Of a stretch of 64,000 nucleotides of DNA, positions 29,658 to 57,300 are shown in pieces; the stretch's first letter is position 1, and each line of letters starts with the position of its first letter. The notes below the pieces were generated by a model. The model saw only the letters and a program-made list of their open reading frames with translations. It had not been told where the DNA came from and did no database searches. The stretch comes from Kiritimatiellia bacterium (GTDB taxonomy: Bacteria; Verrucomicrobiota; Kiritimatiellia; RFP12; UBA1067). The stretch is from NCBI GenBank assembly GCA_017628025.1, contig JAGBZX010000001.1, positions 1,268 to 65,267 on the forward strand, written 5' to 3'. Both the position numbers and the translations under genes were made by a program.

Positions 29658-29686
29658 ATTATACTATTATTTCCCTCAAGTTTCAA
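29658..29686 (-). promoter_or_regulatory. Internal sigma70-type promoter in front of the secretin gene
   Basis: Minus strand TTGAAA (29686..29681, overlapping the upstream stop codon), 17-nt spacer, TATAAT (29663..29658), 29 nt before ATG 29628. Confidence 0.5.
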
Positions 29687-33462: not shown

Positions 33463-33463
33463 A

Positions 33464-37580: not shown

Positions 37581-40500
37581 TTATTGAACAACTTCAACTT
37601 TATAATATCCAGACTTGCAGTCAAGTGTTTCCGTAAGAGGCACTTCTACAACTGCTTCATCAGCACCGATGTTTACAGTAATCTCGCTCTTAAGCGTCCA
37701 GTCCGCCTCGGCAAGTGTTGCCTTGGTGTAGATCTTGAGCGTTACTGTTGCATAGTTCTTGCCAGATTCGATACCGAAGATGTCACGGAGCTTAATACCT
37801 GCAATCGTATCAGCGACAGAAGCATCAACGCCAAGTATGACCTTCTTGCCGGCAGTGTCAAGCGTCATAGAGGAGATCTTAAGCGTATCAGGAACAATCT
37901 TCTTTTCGATTGCATCGCGGATTGCGCTAATAGAGCTCATCTTGCTGACATCAAGACCGATGAGGGCCGCAGCAAAGTCTGCACTCTGGAAGACCGTAAG
38001 CGAGGCGCCCGGGAGACCAGCGGAAATTGCCGCGTCAAAGACACCAGAGGCGATCTTGTTGGTGATTGTTACAAAGCCTTCTGGAAGAATGACCTTGTCA
38101 GAACCAATAGATGTCTGAGACTTAACTTCCTTGACAGATTCCCACTTGCCTCTCCAGCCAGCGGAAGCATATTCCCAAGCATCAGGGAGCCAGTCGCCAT
38201 CAGTATCAGAGTCTTCAATCCAGACACCAACGATAGGTGACTTAACTAGTTCATTATTAAGGACAACCATCTCGCCAGCATAACCCCAAGGCTCGAATGC
38301 GCTAAGCTCGCCGTCGCCATCCATATCGATGAACGCACGAACAAAGAAGTCACCATTTGCAGGTAATCCCTTGAGCTTTGCATTAGCAGTATTGAGCGAA
38401 ATATTCTCAACATCATTCGTTGCGAATGTTTCAGCTACTGGCGTACCAGAGAAGTCTGCTGTCGTGAACGCCTGAACACGAACCGTTCCGTTTGTACCAG
38501 CGCCCTTATACTTAGCTAGAACAACAGAGGAGCCAGCGTACTTAACACTTACGTCAATAGCCGAGTAGCCGTGATCGTTAACGTCCTGCTGGGCATTGAC
38601 CATCGTAGCGAATGTCGAGTAGCTCGACCACTTGGTTGTTGACTCTGTTGAGAACTTAGCGTTGTACATGCTAACTCTCCACTTATATGAAGAGTCGGTA
38701 AGGAATGTCTTGCCGTTAGCAAGTTTCTCACCTGCGCAAATTGGAGCAGTCCAAACAAACTGACCAACCGAGTTCATCTGAGGTGCGCGGCAGATGCCAG
38801 AATCCCAAACAAGACCGTCAGAAGAGTCTGTAATCTGGAGCCTGAAGGCCGTGTACGTTGAGCCAAACTGCTTAGCCCATACCGACTCACCAGGCATTGA
38901 CCACTTGAATGTCGGCCTTGCGCCATAGACAATCTGCGAGACGTTATCGAGCTGAGGTGTCGCGCAAATGCGGTCAAAGCGTCTTGTCACGAGGAACTTC
39001 GAAGCTGCGATTTCTTCCATATCGTCTTCGCTTTCAAACGAGCTCTTGCCTTCACCGATGACAACGAGGTAAGAAACGTTCGTAATATTGAGTGCGTTAT
39101 AGTTAAACGCATCTGCAACATACTTGTTATTCATAACCTCAGCGTTAAACTTAGCCCAGTCAATATCGAATTGACCATTGCCGAGGAAGTCAGCCTCAGT
39201 AAGCATTGAACGAGCTGCTGTCGTGAAGTACTTATCCATCACAATCGTAGGCAATGCCCAGAGTTTGTAGCATGGGTAGCCGTTAATCGCATGTCTTGCA
39301 ACACGAACGCGCGTGCTCTGCTCAGAGATTGCTGCTTCAACTAGCATATTTGTCTCAGTGTTGATGCGGCTATCTGTTGTGTAATAACCCTCTGCGGCAA
39401 GATCAGGTCTGTCAGATGTACCTGCGGCAAGATCAATGCGAGGCGTTATTGCGCTATGCTCGCTAAGCTCGATTGTAACCTTCGCGCCCTGCCAGCCTAC
39501 TTCAACATTACGGACAACACCATAAACTGTTTTTGTAGCTGTAGCTGTTGCGCCCATGCCACCAATACCACCCATACCGCTACCGGCAGAAGGAGCATTA
39601 CCACCAGCAGAAGGTGTAAACTCTGCTGTGAAGGTCGTAAAGCCTTCCTTGATGCCAGCGTAGCCCTGATCAGGATCAGAGAGGTAGTAAGTACCGGCAG
39701 TATTTGCGCTTACAGACTTAGACTGCCACTTGATCTTGACATATGCAGAACCCAGACGAATAGACTGGTAATCTGTTACGTTGTTGTTACGATCAGAGGA
39801 GTTTTCATCTTGCTCTGCCATTTCTGGATCCCCAAGCCAAAGCTCGTTGAGCGCTGGGTTGGCGAAGTCGATGGTGACCTTACCTGTCTTGTAATCAATC
39901 GTGCCAACTTCCGTTTCGCCGCCAAATTCGCCGCCAAGCGTTACGAGCTTGCCTTCTTTATCAACGACGAAATAGTACCACTGAGCTTCTTCAACGAGAC
40001 CGATGGAAGTAGCCTCAAGCGTTTCAGGGTTGACCCAAACAAATCCGGTATCCTTGAAGAAGAGTCTAAATGTACCTGCCTGAACAACGCCAGGGCCAAG
40101 ATAGTACGTCTTTCTCACCTTCGGGTTGATACCGATGTACTTAGTTGAAGGTTCGACTTCAGTAGCGGTTGTCTGACCTAACTGTGTACTAGTCGTCATT
40201 TCAACGGTGTTACCGACAGTCCAAACTGCGTCTGGCTGCTTTGTCATATCAAAGTTGGCCTTTTCGTTCCACGCCTTGAATGTTACGCTGCCTGCGAGAT
40301 TTTCTGCGCCATTGTAGACGAGATTCATCTCAATAACAGGTACTGGATGCTCGATGCGGATAAATCCATCGATACCAGAAGATGCATCAACATCAGGATC
40401 AGTGTTCGAACGGAATTCAGCATAGTTAGACCAGCCGTCGTTGTCACGGTCAATCATTGGGTCATACTCGCCTGGATTTGCGTAGAGCATACCATCAACT

Positions 40501-43500
40501 CCTGCCATAGCGAACTGATATTCCCAATCATCGCCAACGCGGTCATGGTCAGTAAACATCTCACCGAGATACATCTCTCCGACCTTGCGGAAGTAGTCAA
40601 CTACAGAACCATCGGTCTTGGGATTGTTCGGGTCAAGCTTGACGAAGTTGAAGACTTCGCTTACGAGATATTCTGCGTAGTTCGAAAGACCATCACCGTC
40701 AGCGTCCTTACGCGCATCTTCACCCTTGAGGTGATAGTAGAACGCGTGCTTATCGGTTACGCCATCGCCATCAGTATCGACAGTATTTGGATCAGAAGGC
40801 GAGTTGCCGCGATCGAATTCGTTGTAGAGCGGCAATGAGTCGCTATCGTCGTCAGTCGTGCGGTCAGCAAAGTCCCATGGGCTGTAGCCAGTGTAAAGCT
40901 CCCAACCATCAGGCAAGCCATCACCGTAACGACCTTCGCTATCGCCCCAATCGCTGTCAATAATGCCAGGCTTGAGCGACCACGATGCCCAATCAGCAGC
41001 TGCGTTTACAACTCTTTCATCGCAAAGGCCCATCGCCTCGTAGTACCTAATAAGTAAGTACTTGTCAAGAGCGGTGAATTCCTTCGTGTTGATTCTATCT
41101 TCAGAAGCAATGTAACCGTTTGCCGTCTTAGAGTTGAAGCCATACTTGCGATAGACCTGGTTGTGGAGAAGCACAACCTTAGCCTCAGTATTGACCTCAA
41201 TTGCACGGTTTTCACCCAAGGTTACATCAACTGCTGTAACTGTCGAAACAACATTCGAAGATGTTGGCTCAATAATCGTTACATCGACGTTGAGGTTTGT
41301 GAGAGTGCCAAGCGTGTATATGCCACCATCAACAGAAGCGATTTCATAAGCCTGACGGCCAGTAACATTGTCGCCAACATTAATTGCCGCGTCCTCTGTG
41401 AAGAGGTAGCTAGAAACAACATTGTCTGTCGTGTTGCTAATACCAGCAAGTATGTACTTGGCCGTTGATGGAATCGTGACAGATGCACCAATGCCATACA
41501 TGCCACCAGCATACTCAAAGGCCTTGTTAAGAACTTTGTCGTTCATGTTGTCGCCAATGACAGGAAGTGCCGCGCCTTCCGGGAGCACGTAAATTTCTTC
41601 AGTGCCCGTAAGAGTTGAACGCGTTCTAACTGTCGTCATGACAACTTCGCTGTATGCCATCACATCGCCATCAACTACCGTATCTGCATCTTCTGCGTCG
41701 AGCGGATCGGTGCCAGCCCAAACTTCCCAGCCGTCCCACATTCCGTCGCCATCTGTGTCGACAGAGTCAGGATCTGTGCCGATTTCCTCTTCTTCAAAGC
41801 CCTTAAGACCATCACCATCGCGGTCAGAAGTGTCGTTTGAAGAGTCATCGTCAGACTCGCTAGAGATTGCCTCTTCGGCGGCCTTGAGGTCGTCCTCGTT
41901 ATCAAGAACGTCAACGATGAAGTTCTGGTTAATGTCAGTATCCTCAATATAGACAGTTGCCACTGCCGGATCAAAGACTGCATCAGCATTAATCGTCACG
42001 CTCACAGGCGTCCAAATCTCTGCGTCTTGAGTACCAACATTACATGCATAACCCCATGACTCGTAGCTCTGTCTTACGCCATCGCCGTTGCGGTCAATGA
42101 ACGCCAGGAGATAATACTCGCCATTAGGAAGACCTGAAAGCGTAATACTTGCAGCGCCATCAACAAGCGAGCTGCCAACTACGCGAGATTTGGCGATGCC
42201 GGCAAAATCAGGCGTTGAGTATGCCTCAACAACAATGTTGCCCGCTGTTGCGGAAGGTCCGTAGTACTTAACATTGGCAGTTGCCTCACCAGAGAGATCA
42301 ACCGTAAACTTGGCCGCTTCGCTCCAAACGACATCCTGAGAAGAAAGTTTCTCAAGTGAAGAGAACTTCGCGTTGAATAGTGCAACACGCCAGAAGTATG
42401 TAGCGCCATCTTCAGCAAAGAATCTTGGCTCAGCAGTTACAACACCCTTGACTGCGCCAGAGAGGAGGTTCGTCGTTGCGAAGACCACATCACCAAAGTT
42501 CTCGTCACGAGAAACTTGGAGCGCGTAAGCAGTGTAGGCCTGAGTATCAGCGTTAAACTCAAACGAAGGTCTAGCTGCAGTTACCACGCCGCGGGAATTT
42601 GCACTTGGCGCAATTGGCAATCCAGACGAACGAGTTGAAGGATATTCATTCTTGAATGTCGCAAAGACATTCTCGTTAGTCTGACCGGCTTTATACTTAG
42701 CATCGCCAAGAATGACTTCATACGTTGCATCAGCAATTGCCGAAGGAGCAAGACCCATTGACTTAGCATCAGCAGCCAGATATGGATCAATGTCATTCTT
42801 AAGAGCTGTATAGAAGTCGCCTTCGTGGATGAAGCTACGATTTGCAACCGTGTAGATACGGTTAAGGAGCGTGCGCTTCTTAGCAGTCGTATCGCCGTTG
42901 ATAGCAGTACGAACGATTCTTACGCGAATCTGCTCGCCATCAATCGAGCTTGTTGTACCGCCTGCAGTTCCAGCTGTCGCGCCAGGAGCGACTGGTGCAG
43001 CAGGAGTTGAGCCAAATACTACATTAGAAGTATTCGTTGTAGAGCCCTCAAGAACTGTCCTATCAGAGGTTGCAGCAAGAATATCAATACGAGGAACAAC
43101 AGGCGTTACGTCTGTAAGTTCAATCGTGAAGTCCGCTGCACGAGAGTAACCAACAGGGATGCTCTTAACGATACCGAATGGCTCTGCTGCGTTATACATG
43201 CCGTCACCATTGATATCTGCGTATGCCGCAAAGTGGATATCACCTTCCTTAAGGTAGCCGTGCTGTGGAATCTTAAGCGACATTGAGAGATAGCCGTTGT
43301 GAGCCATTGAGCCCTCATAATCACTCTGCGGGACGACCCACCAGCAAAGCTTCTTCTGCATATTGGCAGAAGCATAAGCCTCGATAACGAAGGCGCCAGC
43401 GTCAATATCCTTTTCGCCACTGTAGGCAAGCTTGACATTGATAGTTGGGTACGGGACGCCTGCGTAGTTGCTCTGTACACGCATCACTGTCTGGGTATCG

Positions 43501-46500
43501 AGATACCTAATGGAACCGGAGATCGACGATGTCCAGTTGCCTGCAGCATCCATCGAGGTCGAAACTGAAATATTGTCTTCAAGAACTGCGTAGTTGTTGC
43601 GGATGTAATCGTATTCCTCGCTCGAGATGTTACTGCGAATTACCTCATTCGAGATAACATCAGCAATATACGAGACACCAGTTTCTACGAACGAACGAAT
43701 CTCAGACCAGTTAGACCAGCCATCCTTATCAGTATCCTTCGTTGCATCATAGAGACCACGGTTATAACCAAAGTCAGACTCGATTGAATCTTCAATGAAG
43801 TCGTGATCGGCAACAACCTCACCAATGTAGTGCGTATTGCCAGCAACTACAACCTGACGGAAGTAATCGTTCGTGACAGTGTCAGTCATAAGCTTTCTGA
43901 CATCTAACACTAATCCGTACTCGCGAGCCTTGTATTCTTGGATGTTTGAAAGGCCATCGTTATCAACATCAGAGAACTGTGCCTCTGGCGTCTTGATATC
44001 ATAGAAGTATGCATCGCTGTCATTGAAGACACTTGAAACGGTGTGATCATTCCAAGGATCTGTAGGCATATTGCCGCGATCATATTCGTTGACGAGTTTG
44101 AGATTGTCAGCATCTTCGTCGATTTCACGATCATCAAACTTCCAGCAGCTAATTGCCTTACCGTTCGTGAACGATTCGAGATTCATGTCATTCTTGCCGA
44201 ACATGACATAGAGTTCCCAGCCATCTGGTACGCCATCTTCATCATAGTCGACGTTATAAGGCACAAGCGAGTAAGACTTCCAAAGATTCTTCTGATTTAC
44301 ATCTGCCTCCTCGCAAATACCGAGCGAAGCAAAGTAACGAAGAAGGAGGTACTTATCAAGCGCTGTGAACACCTTCGTGTTAACTGCGTTCGTAGCATTA
44401 ACCGCTGTAAGCGAATTAAAGCCGAACTCAGCATAGACCTGCGCGTGGAGAAGCGCGACCTTAGCGTCATAGACGTTGACGACTCTGTTGACATACTGTA
44501 CAACATTCGTAACATCGTCAACAATGTTAGTAATAGGTGCTGGGTCATCAATTGTGATAAGACCGCCGCGGCCAATATACTTAACCTCAACTCCGTCTTC
44601 AATGACGGGATACTCAAAGCTATTGTAGACCTCAAGGCCCTTAGCAAGGTCACCGCCAACAGGAAGCGTGTCATCCGTCTTCATGATGTACGTGACTAAT
44701 TCTGCATCAGGAGCATTTGACTTGATAGTAACAAGCTTTGCATCCATCGTAGCAAATGCCATCACATCGCCATCGGTGTATTCACCAGCGTCAGCAAAGA
44801 GCGGATCCATATCAGCGAAGATTGCTTCCCAGCCATCTGGCATGCCATCGCCATCAGAATCCCACATTGAAGGATCTGTGCCGAATGAAGCTTCGTCTTC
44901 ATCAGAAAGACCATCGCCATCACTGTCATTACCTACTACTTCTGCTGTGACAGATGTTGAGAAGAACTCTGCCTCAGTGCAGTCGGGAATTTCGTTGCGG
45001 TTAGTATCTGGATCTTCAATGTAAATAATCTTCTTCTCGAAAGCATTTACTTCGTCAGTTACCTGAATAGCATCTGGCGTGTAAATATCTACGGCGTCAG
45101 TGCCGACTCTATTAGCGTAACCCCATGGCTCCCACGCATCGCGGCGACCATTGTTATTAAGATCGATATACGCTCTTAAGTAAACCTCGCCAGGCTCAAT
45201 ACCACCAAGAACAACGTCTGTTGTTGTGATATCAGCAATGCTTGAGAGGCGCGAAACGTCAGTATAGCGCTTGCGATCAAGCGGCATACCTGTAAAGTCA
45301 GCGCTTGCAAATGCTTCAACAACAACAGCACCTGAAAGCTCGTTCGTGCGAGCGCAGCCAAAGTAGCGAACTACAGCGCCACACTTGCCATAACCAGTTG
45401 GAAGTAATGGGTAACGATTTACGTTGCTTACATCCATCTGGAATGCTGTCCACTTGCTCCAGTCAGAATCAAATTCAGCAGTATTGAACTTCGAGTTCAA
45501 AAGCGCTACTCTCCAATAGTAGTTAGAAGCGTCATGGACATAATACGAGCCGTTCGTCGTAACTGCACAGTTCCAATAGAACTCTGGCGTTACAGTATGG
45601 ACTAAAGTTCCAACTGTGTAACCAATTCTACCAGGTAGAATCTTAATACCGGAATCGTAAATGACATCTGTCTTGTTCGTCGAGGTTGCAATCTGGAGGC
45701 GATATGCCTTCATCGTTTCATCACCTGTCTGGAACGACATCGTTGGGTAAGCCCGATAAACTGGCGCAGTAGCAAGAGGCTCCTTAGCAATCGCAATTGA
45801 GCGAGAAGCTAAGAATTCATTTTCAAATGTGCTAATAACGTCATTAGTTACAGTGCCGTCAGTTAGAATAGAACGCTTAGTTATTTCATACCCTGCCGTG
45901 CGGAGGTCTTCAACTGCAATACCAAGCTTTGTTGCATCCTTTAAGAGCCACTTCCAGTCAAGGTCTGGAGTATTTGCTGAAATAACATCTGCTTCTGTAA
46001 TATATGAACGGTCGTCATTTACAAAAGTCTTCGTAAGAAGTGTTCTTACTGGGACCGTCTTATCATTGAAGATAGTGCTACCATTAATAGAAGTACGCCT
46101 TACTACAACAGTAGTTGTAATCTCGTCTTGGGTAGCCCCTTGTGCAGCATTGCCAGCACCCTGTGCGTCAGCAACATTAACACGAGCAATTGCAGAGCTT
46201 TCATCTTTAAGCTCAATAATAAGCTCTTTCGTCTTGTGCCAGCCTATCTCTACATCGTGTACTGCGCCATACGGATCAATACCAGGCGTAAAGACACCAT
46301 CTCCATCCATATCAATAAATGCCTCGACAGTATTCTTGCCTTCTTTTACACGGCCACTTACTGGCTCGCTAAGCCAGATTGCCTGAGGATATTCATTACC
46401 GATGCGGTACGACCAAATAACCTGGAAGATATTACCTTCAAACGATTCGCCTGTAGCAGACTCTACTGCCGCTAGGTCAATGCTGTATTCACCAGTACGA

Positions 46501-49500: not shown

Positions 49501-52500
49501 CACCTTGGGGTCGGGTCGGTATGCGTTGGATTTGGCGATGTGAGGTTTGCCTTGAGCATTTCCTCATAGTTATTGATACCATCGCCATCAGGGTCAGCCT
49601 CAAGAGCACCGGCAAACCAAGGATACATCATCCAGTCGTAGATGAGAGGCAGCGTGATTGGCGTAGGACGAACCGCACTACCATTCTGCGGAGGATCCAT
49701 AAAGATCTTGGAACGATCGTAATCGGTATGAGTCCATTCATTGAATGCCGCGTTGAACAGTTCCGCTCTGCCGTAGGCCTCAGCAATAACGTCCTTAGAG
49801 CCTGCCTGGACAGAACCTAAAAGCGGGTTAAGACCATGGAACATTTCGTAGTAGTCGTCCATACCGTCACCGTCTGTATCCCAGTTGCGTGGGTCAGTAG
49901 AGACGTACGAAAGGTACGAAGGCATAAGGTAAATATCCGACATATTATCGGGCGTGGCAATCGGTGGCAAGAGGATTTCCTTCGCAGGGAGCGTAGGCTC
50001 GGTGTACGAGCGATCCCATGCGCACTCTGGTCTTGACATATAGCCGCAGAACTTCCAACCCATTTCGCTCCATGGCTGGCTGAATACGCCTGCTGCATTC
50101 ATTCTCTCCAATACGGCAGTTGCCTTGGAGCTGACGTTTGAAGTTACGACAGTGACGTAGTTTGTGACCATCACATTCGTAAGTTCATTCGTTGTAACAG
50201 CAATGCCGTTAGTGGTAACTACAACCTCAACACCCTCTGGGCCATAGACATAAGCAGCGACATTTACGCCATAACCAGAGCCGCTATGCGACATAGGCGC
50301 GTAGCCCATGAAGCCTTGAGCGTGACCAGCGCCGTTAGGACCTTCCTTGAGCATTCTGCCCATTAAGAGCGTCGTGCAATCGTCCCAACGGAAGTGACGA
50401 ACTGTCTGAATAAGATATTCCTGCCAGTTTTCAAGACCATCGTGGTCGAAGTCAACGTCACGAACAGTACCAAGGAGCGGGTCGAAGGAGTGAGCCGTCC
50501 ACTGATCACCTTCTACCTGTTCTTCAACTGGGTCGGTGTATGTATCGCCATACCATGTGCCGTCCATACCGCCAGCGAGGTAAACAACATTAAGCGTCTT
50601 GCCTGCGACACCGTCAGCAATCGATACCGTGTTAGAAGGCGCGCCTGTAGAGAGATCTGTTGGCGAACCAGCATACTGGCGTTCCCATGGGTCAGGAAGC
50701 GCGTCCTGGTCAGTGTCAACCGTGAGCGGGTTAAGACCACCGCCGCGGATACAACGCGAGCCGTCGTCAGTTGGCGTGCCGAAGATGAACGCTCTCATCT
50801 CAACGCCGCCTTCACCGAGAAGGTCATTACCTTCCTGACCGTCAGCGATAGAGTCGCGGTCAGTATCGGGCTGATTTGGATCTGTTGGGAAGAACTTGTT
50901 GAACCAACCCTTTGTGTTACCTGGGTGTCTGCTATAGATTGACTGGCAGCCACTGTAAGCATTGCAAGAATCTGTACCTGCGAATTCTGCCGCGTATACT
51001 AAGCCGTCATCATCTCTATCGAGTGGCAACATAAGGCCAAGAATTGGTGGCTCAAAGGCGGTTCTGGTTTCTTCATCGCCAGGAGCCTGACGAGGATTGC
51101 GATAGACGTAAAGTTCCCAGCCGTCTGGTACGCCGTCGCCATCACTATCTGCACCATGAGCTCTTACAACATTCTTGCCTTGATTTGCTGCTGCAAGCGC
51201 GTCAGCAAGAGCATTTGAAACTTCGGCGTCCGTCTTGTTATCAGTTTGATTTTGACCAGCCTGCGTTGTCGCATTCGAAGAGACATTTGTTGTCACATTA
51301 GTGCCAGTAGTATCAATAATCTCATCGTCTGTAACTTCTTCTTCAAGCGTTACAGTTGGAATAGTTGTCATAAGTCCGAGCCAACCCCATGTATTTTCTG
51401 GGTCCGGAGGCTCTTGCATGCCAGGATACATAATATTGAAGTGCTGACGGTAGCGCGCCAAGAGATACTCGTCATAAGTCGTGTATTCCTTCGTGCGCAT
51501 TGCCATACCAGCGATGTCAGAATCGCTAATTGGTTCCCAACGTGCGCCGACAAGTCCATCATCATTCATATACCACGCCGTGCGTGGATCAAAGCCATAG
51601 CGAGTATAAATCTGATCGTGGAGGAAGACGTAGCGATCAAGATAAAGTGGCGCGCCTGCTGGAATAAGGATGCCATCTCTTTCCTGAGGATAGCAAAGTG
51701 CCGCACCGAAAATCGTAGGATTTTGTGGATCATAATCATCCTCACGGCCATACTTAAGAGGCACTGGATTACCGCCATCAACCGTAGTCGTAAGCGATAC
51801 AACAGCTCTCTTAAGCTGGATACCATCAGCCTTAATGACATAGTATATGTTAGAAATTACTTCCATCTTGTCATTATAGACAGGCTCTTGCTTGTAGTCT
51901 TCACCTGCAACAAGCTGATTGTCGCAGTCAAAATACATAATACCTGTACTTGGATCGATGTAGGCGAGTCTTTGGAAGTGCTCGTAAGCCATGAAGTCGC
52001 CGTCCTCGTTTGTGTTCTTCGAGTTGGCAAGAGGATCAAGGCTCATCATAACTTCCCAACCATCGCACATATGGTCACCATCGGTGTCCCAGTGGCAGGG
52101 GTTCGTGCCGATAATAAGTTCTTCAATATCGGAAAGGCCGTCGTTATCGAAGTCGAACGTCTTTTCTGCCGCTTCATCAACGCGGCGTGAGCAAGGATTG
52201 AACTGCTCAACTACCAAACTTGCAGGAATTTCATCACCGGTTACAAGTCTAAGGTGATTGAAGCGTTCAAAGGGATATTTCTGACCTTCCTGAACCTTAT
52301 AAGCGCCACCTGGTACTAACACCTTAGCGGCATACCAGAAGAAATATTCCCAACCGTCATCAAAACCGTCAGAATCAGTATCTGCCTTAGTAGGATCAAG
52401 TCTTGATTGTTCGCCAGTTGGCTCTGGGCTCCACTTCTCAAGATCTTCTTTAGTAATAGTTGCCCAAGCTTCTCTTTCATCAACTGGCTTAGCAAGTTCC

Positions 52501-55500
52501 TCTGCGACTTCATCTGGAGTCTTGGAGTGAACTGTTGCGAAGTAAGCGTTAGTCTCAACTGGAGAGAACTCTGGATCGCTTGACGTAAGATCTGTAGCGT
52601 TAAGTCCTAAGCCATCGAGACCACGAATTTCTCTAAATGTTGTAAGAGCGACATTGCCAATTGGCGCATAGCTCCTCATAATACCGTCAACTCTCTGAAG
52701 CGTACCATTTGCCATATAGACACCGGGCATAAGGTCCTCATCAGGGTTGGAGGCTGCGATGTCGGTGAGGTCATTTTCGATTGAACTTAAGCCAAGAAGC
52801 TCAAGAAGCTTGCCGCCGCCCCATGTGCGGTGAACAAAGACGTCAGGAATGCCGTCTTGGTTAATATCACCAAGGTTATCCGCCGCGCGCCATTCGCGAG
52901 CGAAGATAGCCTCAATATGCGTATCGAGGTAGCTGCCGTCACCAGTGTATTCAGTAGGAAGTGTGACGCGGCCGCTCGAAACTGCACCAGGACGCTCTGG
53001 GAGAATTGCGCCATTGAGAACGGTGCTACCACCAGCGCCAGTATTGTCATTCTTATCCTGTGCTAGCCAGCAATAGAAGAAGCTGTCGTAACCCTCTCCG
53101 TCATACTTATAGCATGAGTCATCAGCAATATTAACAGTTGGATCAGTGTTATTGCCGCTGCCATCAATCTGCTGATCAAGCCCATTAGAAAGAGCTCCAT
53201 TATCAATGTCGCCGTCCTTATAACCAAAACCATAAACGGTCATGGTAATCTGCTTGCCGCAGTTCCACTTAAGCTGGAAGTTCTCAGCACTCGTGAAGCT
53301 TGCGCCAGAAACATAAGTGTGACCCTTGCCGATACCCTTAGCAAGAGCATACTTTTGAGAAAGCTGTGATGTTGAATCACCGCCGAAAGGACCAGTAGCA
53401 GTCGTGATAAGGAACTTAGAAGGCGTAACCTTAAATAGCCACGTATACGAGTGCGAGCCACCGTCCTTATCTTCAATCATAAGAGTGACGCTCTGCTCGC
53501 CTGCTGCCGCGCCAAAGTTCGGAACAAACGTGCCGCTTGCTGCGCCGGTAATATTCGTGGAGAACTGATTTGCGCACCCAGTGAACGTAACTTTAATACC
53601 ACCCTGTGTGCCATCTGCCCACTTGTTGGTGAAGTCGTCCATAACATCGCTCATGATCTTCCACGAAATCGGGTGACCAGTAGCAGCGCCACCGGCAACT
53701 TCCCAGTGGTTGGTGTTTTCTTCTGGTGTCACAGAGACAACAGGAGCTACGTTCTTAATATAAACACGGTGTGAGCTTGGCAGATAATAGTCATTTGCCT
53801 TCTCATTAGGTGTTGGTAGAAGATTCTCTGTTACAACGCTGGCCTTAATCTCAAAGCCGAAGATTTCAGCATTGTCTGTACCATCAAGCTCAATAGCGTT
53901 AATTACCTGCGTCTTCTTAGTTTTGCTGAGAGTTACGTAATAAACGCCTTCCTCCTCGCCTGGCTCAGTTGAAGCAAACGCGCTGTCAAGAAGCAGCTTA
54001 CCGGGGTTTGGCCTATTGCCTTCGCCATATTGAACGACTTCAAGTTTAACCTTCACATCGCCAGCATAGCGGTTATCAAAGTAATCTAAACTTACTGTGA
54101 ACCTGGCGCCGCGAGTATCGTTTTCATCAAGAAGCGTTTCATCAACTTCTGCTGTTGACCCTTCTGGACCAGTTACCATAACGTATGGCTGATTGAGAAC
54201 TTCAACACTTACCGACGAAGACTGGTCGGTATAACGCGACATATCTTTATCTTTTACTTTACACCTGAATGTATAAACACCAGCTTGAGTAAACGTGTAA
54301 TAGAAGTTCGTTGGGTTGTCGCCTGAGGGATTGCCTTGAATAATAAAGGGATCTTCTTCATAAAGTTCACCATCAAGATAAACAGACCACTGAACTCTGA
54401 ACTGCTCGTTTGTGTCAGTCGTTGTAAGGTCAAACTCACCTGGATCATCAACGAACGGACGGAAACGGCGCGTCATACCGACGGGAACCTTAGTAGGATA
54501 CGTTGAGCCGTCTTCGTATGCGTCAGCAGAATCGTTAACGTAAATACCTCTAATTACAGGCTCTACGTTGTAAACTCTAAAGTTAAGCTCTTCACTTGTT
54601 GGATAACCTTCGATCTTGTTATCGGGATTCCAAGACTTTGAAGTACAAAGAACAACCTGGAAACGGAATTTCGCGCCGTTCTTTGCGATATTGGCACCGT
54701 CAAGAGCGAGCATCGAGTTAGAAACCCAGCTCGTTACATTCTTGCCAATCTTGATGCCGCTAGTACCAGCTGCAGCAGTCTGCAGGTTAGTAATAATAAA
54801 GCTCTCGTCAAACTGCTTAAGATCGATTTCGTCTTCAGAGTAAAGGAACGCGTAAGCATCTTGACCAAGCTTAATCTGTTCATCACCAGAGAAGAAACCA
54901 ATCTGGAAGTTTACAGAATCACCTTCGTTGTATGTATTATCCTTGCCGTCAATCGTCTGGATAACAATCGTCGTTACATCCTTAACCGTAACATTAAAGG
55001 TGTAAATTTCACTCCACTGTTTACCGTAAGGTGAAAGAACCTGGATTGTGCCAGTCTTCTCGCCAGAAGTTGAATACGAAACAGAAGGAAGAGTTACGTT
55101 GCCTTCATCATCAATCGCAACAAGCTTCTCTTCCTTGTAAAAATACTTGCCGGGAAGAGTGCTACCATTAATCTTAAGCGTGTAGCCATTTTCCTCGTCA
55201 GTAATATCGGCAAAAATGTCAGAAAGCGTAATCGTAAGAGGCAATGAGGCGCCGCTTTCAACTGAATCTTCATGTTCAACGCCAGTAATAACTGGCTTTG
55301 CTGCCTTAATCGTGAAGCTTGCTGCATTTAGATTCTTAATGCCTGAGGCTTCCTGTTCGCCCGCCCCAAGCGAAGGAGTAAGGCGGATTGGCTTAGCCTT
55401 TGTACGAGTATATTCATCGCTCTTTAATGGGTAAATATACACATACTGCCTAGCAGTTGAGTTAGCTGTAAACTCTAGCGTGAGCGCCTGCTCAGACTCT

Positions 55501-56906
55501 TCTTTTGTAGGCGTCGTAGCTACGCTCTCGTCAGAAGCAAAGCGGAAATAATCTTCCCACTTGATATCAGCATCTGCAACACCATTAGTTGCATTGAAAG
55601 ATGGCGTAAGTGTTACGTGAATCGTCGTATCAACTGGCTGATTCAAGTAAACTGCAACCATGCTTTTAGAGTTTTCTAAATCGCCATCTGCAGTAACTTC
55701 AACTGGGTCAATTTCAAGATAAACTGAAGCCGACTCCTTCTCAGAGCACATTACCGGCACTTCGAGATAATCTTCCACGCGGTTGTTGTTCGTGTCATAC
55801 GTGTAATAGGGATAGGCGCTCAGGACGAGCTTAGCCTTATTCGGGTGCGCGACACCGTAAAGCTTAAATCCGCCAGTCGTGGAGCCGCGGCTAATCGTAA
55901 CCTTGGCCATCTGGACAGTCATCGTCTGCTTTTCAAGCTGCCCGCCCGCGCCGGCAACGATGTTCGTCACAATCGTAGTAGGCGTGCCGCCGCTGATCTT
56001 GACTGCCTTTTCGTCTGTTGACCAGACATAAAGCGTAATATTATCTTCTTCGACCGCGCTGTCCGCCACTAGGCTGGCTGTGCCGTAACCGATCTTTGTT
56101 GAAGCCTCATGAACTGTGCGCCACACGCCTTCCGAATCGTCGGTAGGCGGAATTTCCCACTCGGGATGGAAATCAACTGTCTGGACGTAGAAGCCGCATT
56201 TCTTGAGCGTGAAGTCGGTTTCACGACGACCCCATGGCTTCTGGTCAAGAACGTTATCGACATTTGAAGCGAAGACGAGATCAGCAAATTTGCTGTCATT
56301 GGCACCTGCAGAATCGTTGTTGCCATCACGAATCTGCCATTTGCCCTGATCGCCAACTTTAGTGGAAAGACGGTTGAAGACGTATTTTGAAGCACTTCCT
56401 GATTCCTGCGCGGGCATGTAGTTGCCGTCTTCATCTTCAACGGCCAACTTGATGGGCAGCGCGAAATCACCGGGCTTAGTGGTGTACTTAAAGACGAAAT
56501 CGCTGTAGATGTATCCGTCGTCCGGCTCATCAGGATTCACAGGAGTCAAGAACTGCGTTTCCACGAGATCCGCCCAGCGAAGCTCACCAGAAACATAGAT
56601 ACCGATCTGAAGCGGATACATAGCTTCGTCAAGCGTGGGTGAACCCCACGTGACATCGTTATGCACGAGCCTCCAGTGTGGATTATTAATCCCGTTTCTA
56701 ACAAGCCTCATGACGAAGTATAAGTCTTCACCAGCTTTTAGCGGCTCGCTTATTGTTGTGTAGGCGTCTGCCTGCACATACTGCAAGGTTCCTGCTTGTG
56801 TAGCTGGTTTACACGGACGGATTTCGTATATGTCCGCTCCGGTGGCAACTCCCGCCAGAGAAATAAGTCCAGCGAGTAATATTCCGGATTTCATTAGTGA
56901 TTTCAT
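37581..56906 (-). CDS. Giant secreted calcium-binding repeat protein (6441 aa): PKD-like + TSP3-like motifs + LamG + three super-repeats
   Basis: Uninterrupted 19,326-nt ORF. ATG 56906 has AAGGAG 8 nt upstream. Signal peptide MKSLMKSGILLAGLISLAGVATGA. About 30 DxDxDGxxDxWE-type motifs counted by eye. Residue numbering was checked against nucleotide coordinates at two points (V2679 = 48872; D5486 = 40451). Confidence 0.9.
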   Translation of the reverse strand: MKSLMKSGILLAGLISLAGVATGADIYEIRPCKPATQAGTLQYVQADAYTTISEPLKAGEDLYFVMRLVRNGINNPHWRLVHNDVTWGSPTLDEAMYPLQIGIYVSGELRWADLVETQFLTPVNPDEPDDGYIYSDFVFKYTTKPGDFALPIKLAVEDEDGNYMPAQESGSASKYVFNRLSTKVGDQGKWQIRDGNNDSAGANDSKFADLVFASNVDNVLDQKPWGRRETDFTLKKCGFYVQTVDFHPEWEIPPTDDSEGVWRTVHEASTKIGYGTASLVADSAVEEDNITLYVWSTDEKAVKISGGTPTTIVTNIVAGAGGQLEKQTMTVQMAKVTISRGSTTGGFKLYGVAHPNKAKLVLSAYPYYTYDTNNNRVEDYLEVPVMCSEKESASVYLEIDPVEVTADGDLENSKSMVAVYLNQPVDTTIHVTLTPSFNATNGVADADIKWEDYFRFASDESVATTPTKEESEQALTLEFTANSTARQYVYIYPLKSDEYTRTKAKPIRLTPSLGAGEQEASGIKNLNAASFTIKAAKPVITGVEHEDSVESGASLPLTITLSDIFADITDEENGYTLKINGSTLPGKYFYKEEKLVAIDDEGNVTLPSVSYSTSGEKTGTIQVLSPYGKQWSEIYTFNVTVKDVTTIVIQTIDGKDNTYNEGDSVNFQIGFFSGDEQIKLGQDAYAFLYSEDEIDLKQFDESFIITNLQTAAAGTSGIKIGKNVTSWVSNSMLALDGANIAKNGAKFRFQVVLCTSKSWNPDNKIEGYPTSEELNFRVYNVEPVIRGIYVNDSADAYEDGSTYPTKVPVGMTRRFRPFVDDPGEFDLTTTDTNEQFRVQWSVYLDGELYEEDPFIIQGNPSGDNPTNFYYTFTQAGVYTFRCKVKDKDMSRYTDQSSSVSVEVLNQPYVMVTGPEGSTAEVDETLLDENDTRGARFTVSLDYFDNRYAGDVKVKLEVVQYGEGNRPNPGKLLLDSAFASTEPGEEEGVYYVTLSKTKKTQVINAIELDGTDNAEIFGFEIKASVVTENLLPTPNEKANDYYLPSSHRVYIKNVAPVVSVTPEENTNHWEVAGGAATGHPISWKIMSDVMDDFTNKWADGTQGGIKVTFTGCANQFSTNITGAASGTFVPNFGAAAGEQSVTLMIEDKDGGSHSYTWLFKVTPSKFLITTATGPFGGDSTSQLSQKYALAKGIGKGHTYVSGASFTSAENFQLKWNCGKQITMTVYGFGYKDGDIDNGALSNGLDQQIDGSGNNTDPTVNIADDSCYKYDGEGYDSFFYCWLAQDKNDNTGAGGSTVLNGAILPERPGAVSSGRVTLPTEYTGDGSYLDTHIEAIFAREWRAADNLGDINQDGIPDVFVHRTWGGGKLLELLGLSSIENDLTDIAASNPDEDLMPGVYMANGTLQRVDGIMRSYAPIGNVALTTFREIRGLDGLGLNATDLTSSDPEFSPVETNAYFATVHSKTPDEVAEELAKPVDEREAWATITKEDLEKWSPEPTGEQSRLDPTKADTDSDGFDDGWEYFFWYAAKVLVPGGAYKVQEGQKYPFERFNHLRLVTGDEIPASLVVEQFNPCSRRVDEAAEKTFDFDNDGLSDIEELIIGTNPCHWDTDGDHMCDGWEVMMSLDPLANSKNTNEDGDFMAYEHFQRLAYIDPSTGIMYFDCDNQLVAGEDYKQEPVYNDKMEVISNIYYVIKADGIQLKRAVVSLTTTVDGGNPVPLKYGREDDYDPQNPTIFGAALCYPQERDGILIPAGAPLYLDRYVFLHDQIYTRYGFDPRTAWYMNDDGLVGARWEPISDSDIAGMAMRTKEYTTYDEYLLARYRQHFNIMYPGMQEPPDPENTWGWLGLMTTIPTVTLEEEVTDDEIIDTTGTNVTTNVSSNATTQAGQNQTDNKTDAEVSNALADALAAANQGKNVVRAHGADSDGDGVPDGWELYVYRNPRQAPGDEETRTAFEPPILGLMLPLDRDDDGLVYAAEFAGTDSCNAYSGCQSIYSRHPGNTKGWFNKFFPTDPNQPDTDRDSIADGQEGNDLLGEGGVEMRAFIFGTPTDDGSRCIRGGGLNPLTVDTDQDALPDPWERQYAGSPTDLSTGAPSNTVSIADGVAGKTLNVVYLAGGMDGTWYGDTYTDPVEEQVEGDQWTAHSFDPLLGTVRDVDFDHDGLENWQEYLIQTVRHFRWDDCTTLLMGRMLKEGPNGAGHAQGFMGYAPMSHSGSGYGVNVAAYVYGPEGVEVVVTTNGIAVTTNELTNVMVTNYVTVVTSNVSSKATAVLERMNAAGVFSQPWSEMGWKFCGYMSRPECAWDRSYTEPTLPAKEILLPPIATPDNMSDIYLMPSYLSYVSTDPRNWDTDGDGMDDYYEMFHGLNPLLGSVQAGSKDVIAEAYGRAELFNAAFNEWTHTDYDRSKIFMDPPQNGSAVRPTPITLPLIYDWMMYPWFAGALEADPDGDGINNYEEMLKANLTSPNPTHTDPTPRWFTDSGMPMSFTAQYYTQGAPVRNVMFPDSELPFKLTSLATSDEYYQNAIMGSMREDPAAPQQAFLTSFEENEGYDTDNDWVADGREIIKTVKVATDPLDFSDPERHQAAWFDGTDSFMMTRTQAYRGSDANDMFKQFTVEAWICPERKGIVQTILDRAVLYSGNTAVNPGAVIRSNFRLGIDEQGRVFGLFDNADALESGSNEPVSCQRVTGQMLELGKWVHIALTYNGKKLTLYVNGQIADSAETTLIPANGVVFVEQDIGSGLLTGLYDFMPTTLYLGARPIHTPSLENRGDPLVVDKVSYNTIREYFGGYIDEVRVWDGARTSAEILGNYRKRFTMADAKDNRISAYQVWLNRGTRNDNDGLPMLPPELLMHYSFTSLPGATDPAWVSKTPSGFNKQILDITEVDYTKMQDMDFTGCYDVARPELPNLVEVSCNLKGGAYGTYKLGEKTALSYGWWNECETKSRVYNDITVVPWVENTVAHLPAMDSSTMDSLYYSEALAASYVDPTDSGVERFIFPNAANPYSFFNYGADRYLTLFRRNRLVEQMGTKYEPILNLYRYEVRSRLVGPSDLLPMGGAYARRAKEMWDGVPADAWEYTAADDNANGISDWWEEYARGNYGNITWDQDINWNTLIIYHGAEMPAYQAFLIDLAMGLQPNGQFDSDFVSTADTNANNLPDWWEDLFGTKGGADDDDDNDGLSNYNEYLISFGSSPYGIKNGFPILNPLKNRTGRDQLVTDYYLSGPDHAILLSDRHISPNSYIGQIVSDTDFVENWWEKKYNYSFASSKKYDPDYDKDEDGWSNWAEARAFIWRGSFAADVVDRFIDGDNHIICYPEPAIGVRLSYNGVQDTSSKGLVVRTFSGYTPRVDATFTVPAYGVARSKIIGGYYADNVIRGFLTPGNLIPAEVRFERASMSAERTYRWHYVDGLGERFEYSGTYEEYRRQLLFNPALILDDIVLEWVEFGKTLSDADGNKGDIVFAGTDSAGNSVSVNIGKINYRTGEYSIDLAAVESATGESFEGNIFQVIWSYRIGNEYPQAIWLSEPVSGRVKEGKNTVEAFIDMDGDGVFTPGIDPYGAVHDVEIGWHKTKELIIELKDESSAIARVNVADAQGAGNAAQGATQDEITTTVVVRRTSINGSTIFNDKTVPVRTLLTKTFVNDDRSYITEADVISANTPDLDWKWLLKDATKLGIAVEDLRTAGYEITKRSILTDGTVTNDVISTFENEFLASRSIAIAKEPLATAPVYRAYPTMSFQTGDETMKAYRLQIATSTNKTDVIYDSGIKILPGRIGYTVGTLVHTVTPEFYWNCAVTTNGSYYVHDASNYYWRVALLNSKFNTAEFDSDWSKWTAFQMDVSNVNRYPLLPTGYGKCGAVVRYFGCARTNELSGAVVVEAFASADFTGMPLDRKRYTDVSRLSSIADITTTDVVLGGIEPGEVYLRAYIDLNNNGRRDAWEPWGYANRVGTDAVDIYTPDAIQVTDEVNAFEKKIIYIEDPDTNRNEIPDCTEAEFFSTSVTAEVVGNDSDGDGLSDEDEASFGTDPSMWDSDGDGMPDGWEAIFADMDPLFADAGEYTDGDVMAFATMDAKLVTIKSNAPDAELVTYIMKTDDTLPVGGDLAKGLEVYNSFEYPVIEDGVEVKYIGRGGLITIDDPAPITNIVDDVTNVVQYVNRVVNVYDAKVALLHAQVYAEFGFNSLTAVNATNAVNTKVFTALDKYLLLRYFASLGICEEADVNQKNLWKSYSLVPYNVDYDEDGVPDGWELYVMFGKNDMNLESFTNGKAISCWKFDDREIDEDADNLKLVNEYDRGNMPTDPWNDHTVSSVFNDSDAYFYDIKTPEAQFSDVDNDGLSNIQEYKAREYGLVLDVRKLMTDTVTNDYFRQVVVAGNTHYIGEVVADHDFIEDSIESDFGYNRGLYDATKDTDKDGWSNWSEIRSFVETGVSYIADVISNEVIRSNISSEEYDYIRNNYAVLEDNISVSTSMDAAGNWTSSISGSIRYLDTQTVMRVQSNYAGVPYPTINVKLAYSGEKDIDAGAFVIEAYASANMQKKLCWWVVPQSDYEGSMAHNGYLSMSLKIPQHGYLKEGDIHFAAYADINGDGMYNAAEPFGIVKSIPVGYSRAADFTIELTDVTPVVPRIDILAATSDRTVLEGSTTNTSNVVFGSTPAAPVAPGATAGTAGGTTSSIDGEQIRVRIVRTAINGDTTAKKRTLLNRIYTVANRSFIHEGDFYTALKNDIDPYLAADAKSMGLAPSAIADATYEVILGDAKYKAGQTNENVFATFKNEYPSTRSSGLPIAPSANSRGVVTAARPSFEFNADTQAYTAYALQVSRDENFGDVVFATTNLLSGAVKGVVTAEPRFFAEDGATYFWRVALFNAKFSSLEKLSSQDVVWSEAAKFTVDLSGEATANVKYYGPSATAGNIVVEAYSTPDFAGIAKSRVVGSSLVDGAASITLSGLPNGEYYLLAFIDRNGDGVRQSYESWGYACNVGTQDAEIWTPVSVTINADAVFDPAVATVYIEDTDINQNFIVDVLDNEDDLKAAEEAISSESDDDSSNDTSDRDGDGLKGFEEEEIGTDPDSVDTDGDGMWDGWEVWAGTDPLDAEDADTVVDGDVMAYSEVVMTTVRTRSTLTGTEEIYVLPEGAALPVIGDNMNDKVLNKAFEYAGGMYGIGASVTIPSTAKYILAGISNTTDNVVSSYLFTEDAAINVGDNVTGRQAYEIASVDGGIYTLGTLTNLNVDVTIIEPTSSNVVSTVTAVDVTLGENRAIEVNTEAKVVLLHNQVYRKYGFNSKTANGYIASEDRINTKEFTALDKYLLIRYYEAMGLCDERVVNAAADWASWSLKPGIIDSDWGDSEGRYGDGLPDGWELYTGYSPWDFADRTTDDDSDSLPLYNEFDRGNSPSDPNTVDTDGDGVTDKHAFYYHLKGEDARKDADGDGLSNYAEYLVSEVFNFVKLDPNNPKTDGSVVDYFRKVGEMYLGEMFTDHDRVGDDWEYQFAMAGVDGMLYANPGEYDPMIDRDNDGWSNYAEFRSNTDPDVDASSGIDGFIRIEHPVPVIEMNLVYNGAENLAGSVTFKAWNEKANFDMTKQPDAVWTVGNTVEMTTSTQLGQTTATEVEPSTKYIGINPKVRKTYYLGPGVVQAGTFRLFFKDTGFVWVNPETLEATSIGLVEEAQWYYFVVDKEGKLVTLGGEFGGETEVGTIDYKTGKVTIDFANPALNELWLGDPEMAEQDENSSDRNNNVTDYQSIRLGSAYVKIKWQSKSVSANTAGTYYLSDPDQGYAGIKEGFTTFTAEFTPSAGGNAPSAGSGMGGIGGMGATATATKTVYGVVRNVEVGWQGAKVTIELSEHSAITPRIDLAAGTSDRPDLAAEGYYTTDSRINTETNMLVEAAISEQSTRVRVARHAINGYPCYKLWALPTIVMDKYFTTAARSMLTEADFLGNGQFDIDWAKFNAEVMNNKYVADAFNYNALNITNVSYLVVIGEGKSSFESEDDMEEIAASKFLVTRRFDRICATPQLDNVSQIVYGARPTFKWSMPGESVWAKQFGSTYTAFRLQITDSSDGLVWDSGICRAPQMNSVGQFVWTAPICAGEKLANGKTFLTDSSYKWRVSMYNAKFSTESTTKWSSYSTFATMVNAQQDVNDHGYSAIDVSVKYAGSSVVLAKYKGAGTNGTVRVQAFTTADFSGTPVAETFATNDVENISLNTANAKLKGLPANGDFFVRAFIDMDGDGELSAFEPWGYAGEMVVLNNELVKSPIVGVWIEDSDTDGDWLPDAWEYASAGWRGKWESVKEVKSQTSIGSDKVILPEGFVTITNKIASGVFDAAISAGLPGASLTVFQSADFAAALIGLDVSKMSSISAIRDAIEKKIVPDTLKISSMTLDTAGKKVILGVDASVADTIAGIKLRDIFGIESGKNYATVTLKIYTKATLAEADWTLKSEITVNIGADEAVVEVPLTETLDCKSGYYKVEVVQ
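38139..47429 (-). repeat. Three diverged protein-level super-repeats of ~1090-1150 aa (SR1 ~43983..47429, SR2 ~40719..43982, SR3 ~38139..40718)
   Basis: Collinear landmark strings recur with periods of 1149 and 1088 aa. DNDGLSNYNEY / DNDGLSNIQEY / DGDGLSNYAEY occur at aa 3166, 4315 and 5403. The others are D.DGWSN[WY][AS]E; YYWRVALLNSKF / YFWRVALFNAKF / YKWRVSMYNAKF; and DAWEPWGYA / QSYESWGYA / SAFEPWGYA, each followed by [IV][YW]IED.D[TI]. No DNA-level identity is evident. Confidence 0.8.
48492..49184 (-). other. LamG / concanavalin-A-like lectin domain within the giant protein (aa ~2575-2805)
   Basis: FDGTDSFMM...FTVEAWICPERKG...LGKWVHIALTYNGKKLTLYVNGQ...LYLGARP...FGGYIDEVRVWDGARTSAEI follows the Laminin_G_3 pattern (F-T-x-E-x-W ... 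W-x-H-x-A-x-T-Y-x-G ... L-Y-V-N-G ... G-x-I-D-E-V-R-x-W). Confidence 0.8.
53418..53753 (-). other. PKD-like domain 2 within the giant protein (aa ~1052-1163)
   Basis: HPISWKIMSD...IKVTFTG...GEQSVTLMIEDKDGGSHSYTWLFKVTPS. Confidence 0.4.
54186..54566 (-). other. PKD-like domain 1 within the giant protein (aa ~781-907)
   Basis: QFRVQWSVYLDGELYEE...NPTNFYYTFTQAGVYTFRCKVKDKDMS...SVSVEVL resembles the PKD pattern (Y-x-F-x-x-x-G-x-Y-x-V-x-L-x-V-x-D). Confidence 0.45.
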
Positions 56907-56919
56907 TATTTTCGTCTCC

Positions 56920-57300
56920 TTACTTCGTCTTACCGTTCAAATCAATATCCTTAAGCATGCGATTGCGTACCGTCGCTTCACTTTTGCGGCGAAGCACGTC
57001 AAATTTCTTTGCATACTGAAGTTCCTGTGCTTTTAAAGCGCGTACTTCCTCGCCCTTGCCTTCAGGGTCTTTCTCTGAGGCAGCTTTGAGTTTAGCACGC
57101 AAAATCTGAAGCTCTTTAACTAACATCTTCTGCTCTTTCTGAAGAGCATCAAGTTCTTTTATATACTTTTTATCCTGCATTCTCTTCTCAACAGGCTCAC
57201 GCGTATCTGGAGCTTTGGGCGCTACCAAAATAGCCAAGAGTGCGCCAAGTATCGCTAGCGCAACTATAATAGCTATCGTTAGAATTTTCTTCTTACTCAT
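56920..57300 (-). CDS. Single-pass membrane coiled-coil protein (hypothetical), coupled to the giant gene
   Basis: 126 aa with TM ILTIAIIVALAILGALLAILVA, then a charged heptad-like segment KELDALQKEQKMLVKELQILRAKLKAA. Its ATG overlaps the upstream stop (ATGAGTAA), and its stop lies 13 nt before the giant ATG. Confidence 0.7.
   Translation of the reverse strand: MSKKKILTIAIIVALAILGALLAILVAPKAPDTREPVEKRMQDKKYIKELDALQKEQKMLVKELQILRAKLKAASEKDPEGKGEEVRALKAQELQYAKKFDVLRRKSEATVRNRMLKDIDLNGKTK

Follow-up and report, generated by a model that had tools for sequence, protein, structure and literature searches.

A 64-kb stretch of DNA from a Kiritimatiellia bacterium (64,000 nucleotides of contig JAGBZX010000001.1; hereafter the window) encodes a giant protein of 6441 amino acids (aa) which, judged from its sequence, is a three-repeat member of a lineage-restricted, uncharacterised family of gut Kiritimatiellia. 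What is new is the family itself, a group of giant exported proteins with their own end domains, partner genes and stepwise lengths, and not a new principle. The giant has a signal peptide, a (G)DIYEIRPC region, a single LamG domain, at least one super-repeat, a GF[FY]KVxV end, a partner giant encoded upstream and a small anchor gene, all features of this family. The family plan is fixed: a signal peptide and a unique N-terminal region of ~1340 aa with one or two immunoglobulin (Ig)/PKD-like modules are followed by a core studded with thrombospondin type 3 (TSP3) motifs and one LamG domain, then by one to four copies of a ~1100-aa super-repeat and a terminal helical-plus-beta-sandwich module. 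Nothing specific to the family was found in the literature.

The open reading frame (ORF) begins with ATG and runs for 6441 codons to a single stop at its end; given the base composition of the window, a stop-free run of this length has a chance probability of ~1e-168. Its Shine–Dalgarno sequence overlaps the last codons of the small gene upstream (Table 1), and the N-terminus (MKSLMKSGILLAGLISLAGVATG/ADIYEIRPC) is that of a Sec signal peptide, with n-, h- and c-regions and no lipobox cysteine. An uninterrupted ORF with a strong Shine–Dalgarno sequence and a signal peptide, as described in an initial annotation made from the DNA letters, is thus borne out. The signal peptide is the sole hydrophobic segment of the whole protein, and the mature chain has a mass of 706 kDa and a pI of 4.4.

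Because the source contig was assembled from a metagenome and a neighbouring gene is frameshifted relative to other assemblies, we considered that the giant might be a chimeric or repeat-inflated ORF, which proved very improbable. The longest DNA repeat inside the ORF is 62 nt (69–71% identity), no repeat exceeds 83% identity, and the only recurring DNA consists of short TSP3-motif codons. Four 68.1-kb contigs in NCBI and ENA encode the identical protein, a near-identical version of 6443 aa is also on record, and an orthologue from an independent assembly (P0012, 6416 aa) aligns collinearly with the full 6441 aa at 74% identity. Ten further family members have three-repeat lengths. With no long DNA repeats, the same protein on four contigs and a collinear orthologue, the giant ORF is a real gene and no assembly chimera.

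Searching for homologues with the first 1340 aa of the giant, we obtained nine matches among 5.8 billion proteins, all of them metagenomic and none exceeding 36% identity. When one genome was scanned for each GTDB species, 21 loci with a family gene were recovered, in metagenome-assembled genomes (MAGs) labelled Kiritimatiellia or Kiritimatiellae, Lentisphaerae or Verrucomicrobia, five being labelled only 'uncultured bacterium' (RUG isolates). As indicated by their titles, the MAGs of the relatives come from rumen, sheep colon and human gut. At most of the scanned loci the family gene was one ORF of 3965–4220 aa; at the few loci where it was split, an overlap of neighbouring open frames makes the splits look like frameshifts. 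The shorter orthologues match aa 1–3200 of the giant collinearly, after which they carry one super-repeat (best match, the third of the giant) and the C-terminal module.

Full-length proteins (n = 55; 54 full-length matches and the window protein) fell into four length classes of 3964–4307, 5031–5602, 6165–6646 and 7312–7774 aa, with centres at ~4.1, 5.3, 6.4 and 7.6 thousand aa and a step of ~1100 residues. The landmark of the repeat was present once in members of the first class and twice in those of the second; the third class had two copies (members of 6165–6213 aa and one of 6429 aa) or three, and the fourth had three or four. All 55 proteins had a signal peptide and exactly one LamG copy, and a single-sequence screen detected the C-terminal module in 50 of them. 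At one locus (L001, 10001–26222) three adjacent ORFs of 2073, 1325 and at least 8076 aa stand in place of the family gene; if these are one gene broken by frameshifts, the protein would exceed 11,000 aa and hold many more super-repeats than the one to four seen elsewhere.

Pfam and NCBIfam profiles covered only ~5% of the giant chain. The region after the signal peptide, which starts with the conserved (G)DIYEIRPC, had no match in Pfam, NCBIfam or PDB sequences over aa 24–780, in agreement with the initial annotation, which had recognised no motif there; a search of PDB sequences with a profile of the N-terminal region likewise found nothing. The two PKD-like modules proposed to follow it fared less well, and the PKD assignment is weakly supported by sequence. 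Over the first, at aa 831–904, Y_Y_Y matched below threshold (E = 1e-4, 22.6 bits versus a cut-off of 26.6), as did PKD_4 (PF18911) in the same region (E = 0.009, 16.5 bits versus 27). The orthologous segment nevertheless passed the cut-off of PKD (PF00801) in two of seven relatives (30.8 bits versus 23.5), which lends the first module indirect support; the second gave only faint matches and is best called putative.

The acidic core is the best conserved part of the giant (40–51% identity to a one-repeat orthologue). Bacterial TSP3 (PF18884) scored above its Pfam gathering cut-off at several places (42.5–60.9 bits versus 25), which confirms the type of motif predicted for this region. Some 9–10 motifs, compared with about a dozen in the initial annotation, lie within aa 1345–2555, and the remainder are found in the super-repeats, so the motifs are not limited to the core. 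Over the whole protein we counted 19 TSP3-like motifs with a strict regular expression and 24 with a relaxed one, arranged singly or in pairs 50–400 aa apart and forming no tight array. In an alignment of 12 family members at 31–56% identity, the acidic ligand positions of at least 12 motifs were invariant, a pattern to be expected from selection on calcium sites. The TSP3 sites of the giant are predicted from their sequence to bind calcium.

The single LamG domain that had been placed after the core is well supported: the best Laminin_G_3 stretch spans aa 2603–2716, and a second stretch completes the domain. When a profile of the family was compared with PDB, matches were confined to LamG, the best (E = 1.8e-10) being to LamG-like domains of pappalysins (8sl1, 7y5q). 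Between LamG and the first super-repeat lies a further conserved region that matched no domain (Table 1).

Self-BLAST confirmed the three super-repeats expected to run up to aa ~6256 and showed them to be 25–42% identical to one another. The first combines a TSP3 pair, DUF2141-like beta-sandwiches, an Ig domain resembling the N-terminus of Rha78A and a TSP3-rich tail, which resembles aa 1585–2190 too. In the second, DUF2141 (PF09912) matched aa 4885–4944 (42075–42254) at 32.3 bits when a long fragment was searched and at 24.2 bits with a short piece, against a cut-off of 24.4; the profile scores one of about six look-alike segments. The third, which lacks the TSP3-rich tail, has a weak sub-threshold match to Ig_Rha78A_N at aa 5995–6101 and is the counterpart of the single repeat in the orthologues of 4.1 thousand aa. 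Taken as a whole, the domain families named in the initial annotation divide into TSP3 and Laminin_G_3, which exceed their cut-offs, and PKD and DUF2141, which in the giant are sub-threshold and borderline, respectively.

The chain ends in a distinct module that, as the initial annotation had it, occupies aa 6257–6441 and that we found to be conserved in relatives. It follows the last TSP3 motif and consists of an A/S/L-rich helical half and a beta-rich half ending in G-[FY]-[FY]-K-V-x-[VL]-x. A profile of the module, searched against 1.84 billion representative proteins, gave 132 matches, of which one was a false positive; in all others the module stood at the extreme C-terminus, and nearly all module-bearing matches shorter than 3900 aa were fragments of the giant's own family. 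The false positive was P0112, an unrelated YWTD-type repeat protein matched in seven stretches. In two further matches, P0136 and P0098, an unrelated multi-pass membrane protein continues into the last ~85 aa of the module; chimerism of the contigs or gene calls is the probable cause, and both were disregarded.

AlphaFold2 models of the C-terminal 192 aa reached a predicted local distance difference test (pLDDT) score of 53 with three sequences, and an alignment of 47 sequences was used instead. With this alignment the last ~110 residues were modelled at pLDDT 83–93 as a beta-beta-alpha-beta4 sandwich, the helical half staying uncertain. Foldseek returned no match to the model at E ≤ 0.001 in PDB or BFVD, and the best matches, none significant, were generic accessory beta-sandwiches of glycosidases; a T9SS-like (type IX secretion system) or phage-like receptor domain was accordingly dropped. 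A sequence search of PDB with the module found nothing, and no Pfam or NCBIfam sorting-signal model matched it. An anchoring or recognition signal had been suggested for this module. Its strictly terminal position and conserved end strand speak for such a role, but it belongs to one family, lacks any sorting-model or fold match and, when sought as a stand-alone module in other proteins, occurred a single time in the window and stayed confined to the giant family. In view of this confinement and single copy it does not belong to the known sorting tags carried by numerous proteins of one genome, and by its sequence distribution it is a family-specific terminal domain.

Super-repeats also occur outside the giants. 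P0030 (1303 aa) and P0039 (1061 aa) have a signal-peptide-like N-terminus, a different 'head' of ~250 aa, one super-repeat and the C-terminal module. Homologues of this head are proteins of 265–456 aa, and the head genes that we examined in context sit in co-oriented blocks (L024–L026) with almost no family matches. The protein encoded directly 3' of the head in these islands (753–956 aa) has a signal-peptide-like N-terminus and is a super-repeat homologue (E = 1e-58 to 7e-73); the helical half of the C-terminal module is present in one stand-alone super-repeat protein. Since the super-repeat exists as a stand-alone secreted protein, it is an autonomous, transferable unit. An integrase gene lies at the end of L024 and L025, near-identical copies of one element, and none was called in L026. 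The islands are thus integrase-bearing and prophage-like in layout, and a phage origin is suspected, but searches of PHROGs, Pfam, INPHARED and IMG/VR did not support it. A 611-aa protein of L024 contains the string 'GFFKATIE', which resembles the terminal motif of the giants; the protein did not match the module profile, and the resemblance is a coincidence. A tail-fibre repeat motif was suspected in the same protein, and the same four databases gave no backing for a phage origin.

Two genes accompany the giant in a conserved three-gene arrangement. A small ORF lies between the two giants at 19 of the 20 loci examined, and an RMxDPxY motif that precedes a coiled coil is common to all its products. 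In many relatives this protein contains a lipobox cysteine (for example LAGC, FAGC); in the window and its closest relatives it has an uncleaved-looking anchor without the cysteine. The second gene encodes the upstream partner giant, which tblastn located at 22 of the 23 loci L001–L023 (a set that includes two metagenome contigs), the exception being L016, a 2.4-kb fragment. In relatives the partner is mostly one ORF of 2300–3300 aa with a conserved C-terminal portion of ~2150 aa and a variable N-terminus (DUF2341, LamG or Gly_rich_2), which is signal-peptide-like in several relatives and in the other assemblies of the contig. In the window the partner is frameshifted, with the junction near 58768 (in the 58501–58800 region). 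Other assemblies of the same contig (P0164, P0166) have one ORF of 2944–2946 aa with a signal peptide, a glycine-rich domain and a DUF2341-like segment, and the partner of L003, the closest relative, is likewise continuous (~2945 aa). Either a wrong base in the assembly or a strain variant probably caused the frameshift. The portion of the partner within the window had no domain match, and partner and giant share no sequence similarity.

Table 1 Features of the giant gene, its partners and related islands. Coordinates are those of the window, except for the islands, which are given by locus.
Feature	Protein position	Coordinates	Strand	Remarks
Giant gene		37581..56906	minus	6441 aa; NCBI MBO5642418.1, 'LamG domain-containing protein'; locus tags J6S51_
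Shine–Dalgarno sequence AAGGAG		56916..56921	minus	9 nt 5' of the ATG of the giant
Sec-type signal peptide	aa 1–23	56838..56906	minus	Read from sequence; no lipobox
Family-specific N-terminal region	aa 24–780	54567..56837	minus	29–39% identity in relatives
Ig/PKD-like module 1	aa ~781–907	54186..54566	minus	Sub-threshold Y_Y_Y and PKD_4; PKD passes in some relatives
Putative Ig/PKD-like module 2	aa ~1052–1163	53418..53753	minus	Faint PKD_4/Big_9 matches, in relatives only
TSP3-studded acidic core	aa ~1345–2555	49242..52874	minus	~10 DxDxDGxxDxxE motifs, single or paired
LamG (Laminin_G_3, PF13385)	aa ~2575–2805	48492..49184	minus	65–69 bits versus cut-off 27.6
Conserved post-LamG region	aa 2806–3163	47418..48491	minus	31–43% identity to one-repeat orthologues
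Super-repeat 1	aa ~3164–4312	43971..47417	minus	Self-BLAST and motifs
Super-repeat 2	aa ~4313–5400	40707..43970	minus	Self-BLAST; contains the DUF2141 match
Super-repeat 3	aa ~5401–6256	38139..40706	minus	No TSP3-rich tail
Family-specific C-terminal module	aa 6257–6441	37584..38138	minus	Helical half, then beta-sandwich; ends SGYYKVEVVQ
Beta-sandwich of C-terminal module	aa ~6343–6440	37587–37880	minus	AlphaFold2 model
Small partner		56920..57300	minus	126 aa; N-terminal membrane anchor and charged coiled coil
Upstream partner giant		57293..64000	minus	Frameshifted (57293..58501 and 58756..>64000); runs off the window
Amuc_1098–1102-like cluster		26239–34207	minus	3.4 kb downstream of the giant
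Islands		L024 10001–13649; L025 8317–11965; L026 6643–10763		Head gene of ~411–456 aa, then super-repeat protein of 753–956 aa

From its sequence, the giant may be a Sec-exported, calcium-stabilised fibre of the envelope or cell surface with a stalk of variable length, a reading that we hold at about even confidence. In such a fibre, calcium-loaded TSP3 loops would stiffen a chain of beta-sandwiches into a long extended structure, with the super-repeats forming the stalk and their copy number setting its reach. The LamG-bearing N-terminal two-thirds could be the binding end for a gut glycan or protein ligand, and the C-terminal module could dock it to the envelope or to the two partner proteins. 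For passage across the outer membrane, the Amuc_1098–1102-like secretin cluster is one candidate.

Several observations weigh against a surface fibre. No outer-membrane translocation or anchoring device is found in the giant, be it a type I secretion system (T1SS) signal, repeats-in-toxin (RTX) repeats, an autotransporter barrel, a T9SS C-terminal domain (CTD), or a PEP-CTERM or LPXTG-type tag. According to work cited in a preprint by West-Roberts et al. (2023, doi 10.1101/2023.11.21.568195), bacterial TSP3 motifs are also found in the periplasm-spanning parts of OmpA-like proteins, so TSP3 is no proof of surface exposure. As ~95% of the chain has no family match, the 'beta-sandwich stalk' rests on three weak Pfam matches (DUF2141, Ig_Rha78A_N and PKD) and on motifs identified by eye. 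The genes of the window all lie on the minus strand and are tightly packed, so that proximity to the giant means little, and which end of the protein would be anchored is a guess.

The same data could describe a glycan-binding scaffold released from the cell, in soluble form or as a matrix former, which would trap polysaccharide or mucin or make an extracellular matrix together with its partner. A signal peptide with no recognisable anchor would suit release, secreted carbohydrate-active proteins often carry LamG and Ig-like modules, and the partner bears DUF2341, LamG and Gly-rich modules; the insignificant fold matches were all to accessory domains of glycosidases, and a GH5 cellulase and a beta-helix protein are encoded in the same window. 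We nevertheless consider release unlikely, given that the giant has no detectable catalytic, dockerin or cohesin domain, that attachment accounts better for a conserved domain found strictly at the C-terminal end and for a small partner anchored in the membrane, and that a stalk growing in steps suits something anchored at one end.

Rather doubtful, too, is a calcium-dependent scaffold inside the envelope or periplasm, tethered through the small inner-membrane or lipoprotein partner. A Sec signal with no evident device for export across the outer membrane is what such a scaffold would have, the small partner is either membrane-anchored or a lipoprotein, and the known TSP3-bearing periplasmic linkers of OmpA-like proteins offer a precedent. 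However, a 706-kDa chain with one to four optional units of 1100 aa far exceeds what a normal periplasm would need, LamG and Ig/PKD-like modules are typical of extracellular proteins, and confinement to gut lineages suggests an interface with the environment.

In general terms the size, acidity, calcium motifs and beta-sandwich extender of the giant recall LapA-, SiiE- and MpIBP-type adhesins, but a classical giant adhesin exported by type I, V or IX secretion is hardly credible given the N-terminal Sec signal peptide, the complete lack of GGxGxDxUx nonapeptides and of T1SS, autotransporter or T9SS domain matches, and the absence from the 64-kb window of type I, V or IX secretion genes, including genes for ABC (ATP-binding cassette), MFP (membrane fusion protein) and TolC components. 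Like the giant, those RTX adhesins have distinct ends and one lectin-like module, with calcium motifs along a repeated extender. They differ in lacking its Sec signal, in having a C-terminal T1SS signal and T1SS genes nearby, and in their repeat unit, an Ig-like domain of ~100 aa, compared with a multi-domain unit of ~1100 aa at 25–42% identity in the giant.

Comparison with other systems set the family apart in similar ways. Unlike type V autotransporters, the giant has no C-terminal barrel match in Pfam or NCBIfam, and its C-terminus models as a beta-sandwich of ~100 aa; unlike T9SS cargo, it has no CTD match (Pfam and NCBIfam, and a PDB fold search at E ≤ 0.001), and its module is confined to its own family. 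PEP-CTERM and LPXTG tags are not apparent either, there being no hydrophobic segment beyond the signal peptide and no model match. In periscope proteins, changes within strains depend on tandem DNA repeats that are nearly identical. The giant family shares with them a length that changes by whole repeats between two conserved ends, but its copies are old, without long DNA identity, and its length was seen to vary between species only. The DxDxDGxxDxxE motif is common to the giant, Myxococcus CglD and MtsD, and the Amuc_1099 family, whose NCBIfam models align at the motif only (14–32 bits versus cut-offs of 50–800); the architectures are unrelated. The family profile also matched ~100–135 residues of the LamG-like domains of pappalysins (8sl1, 7y5q) and of an S-layer-domain protein (4qvs), with E values from 1.8e-10 to 1e-3, which is ~3% of the giant, and no metalloprotease or S-layer homology was found elsewhere in it.

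Comparable, too, are the 'dockerin-type' giants of Omnitrophota and other large proteins of the Planctomycetes–Verrucomicrobia–Chlamydiae (PVC) superphylum, which are predicted to be extracellular, carry bacterial TSP3 repeats and have been assigned a presumed role in attachment (West-Roberts et al. 2023, doi 10.1101/2023.11.21.568195). The window giant is much smaller, has no dockerin or discoidin domains and has N- and C-terminal regions of its own. That preprint (doi 10.1101/2023.11.21.568195) does not mention Kiritimatiellia, and the literature on giant genes of PVC bacteria contained no description of the family.

Combining these observations, one could picture a novel three-gene envelope-fibre system of PVC bacteria, made of a partner of ~320 kDa, a small anchor or lipoprotein and the 706-kDa giant. 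Its C-terminal beta-sandwich would dock and its repeats would tune reach, an Amuc_1098-type secretin might export it, and the super-repeat cassette would be traded with the integrase-bearing, prophage-like islands, whose stand-alone or head-fused copies could be decoys or host-binding proteins that use the same docking site. This whole picture is speculative, and we regard it as a long shot.

Kiritimatiellia are common, uncultured members of rumen, hindgut and human-gut communities, and to our knowledge it is not known how they attach to or sense their surroundings. The family represents a conserved and very costly exported structure of these bacteria, one whose length is evolutionarily adjustable, and the giant is built almost wholly of unassigned sequence with none of the recognised routes or anchors of giant Gram-negative surface proteins. 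Exposure of the giant on the surface would indicate that PVC bacteria export and anchor such proteins in a way not yet recognised, and its C-terminal module or LamG head would offer a handle for tracking or capturing these organisms. If it is not exposed there, it is one more large hypothetical protein with calcium motifs and would be commonplace to specialists in PVC genomes, in which large TSP3/LamG proteins are familiar.

Downstream of the giant, the genes run from ackA, 18 nt past its stop codon, through pta, kdsD and the Amuc_1098–1102-like cluster to coaE, rho and recA. The cluster is complete and resembles the pilus-like Amuc_1098–1102 system of Akkermansia; it encodes a 247-aa exported protein, an Amuc_1101-like PilM, an Amuc_1100-like protein, an Amuc_1099-like protein with TSP3 motifs and a secretin of 1132 aa. 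Using the PilM-like protein as query, we found the gene order from kdsD to coaE kept in two related metagenome contigs (L027 and L028), both of which end before the giant. Elsewhere in the window are genes for an 861-aa right-handed beta-helix protein (3000–5585), a GH5 cellulase-family protein (8212–9342) and a 249-aa protein with a prepilin-type N-terminal methylation motif (12474–13223).

All ORFs of at least 150 aa that we judged to be genes lie on the minus strand of the window, and its GC skew is negative throughout. This uniformity fits a long stretch of genes co-oriented with replication, in which operons are not reliably inferred from proximity. The G+C content of the window is 40–50%, compared with 52–68% at the homologous loci of all relatives (L001–L023), among them L003, which has 63% G+C and a giant 69% identical in protein sequence. 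The lineage of the window seems to have shifted strongly to low G+C.

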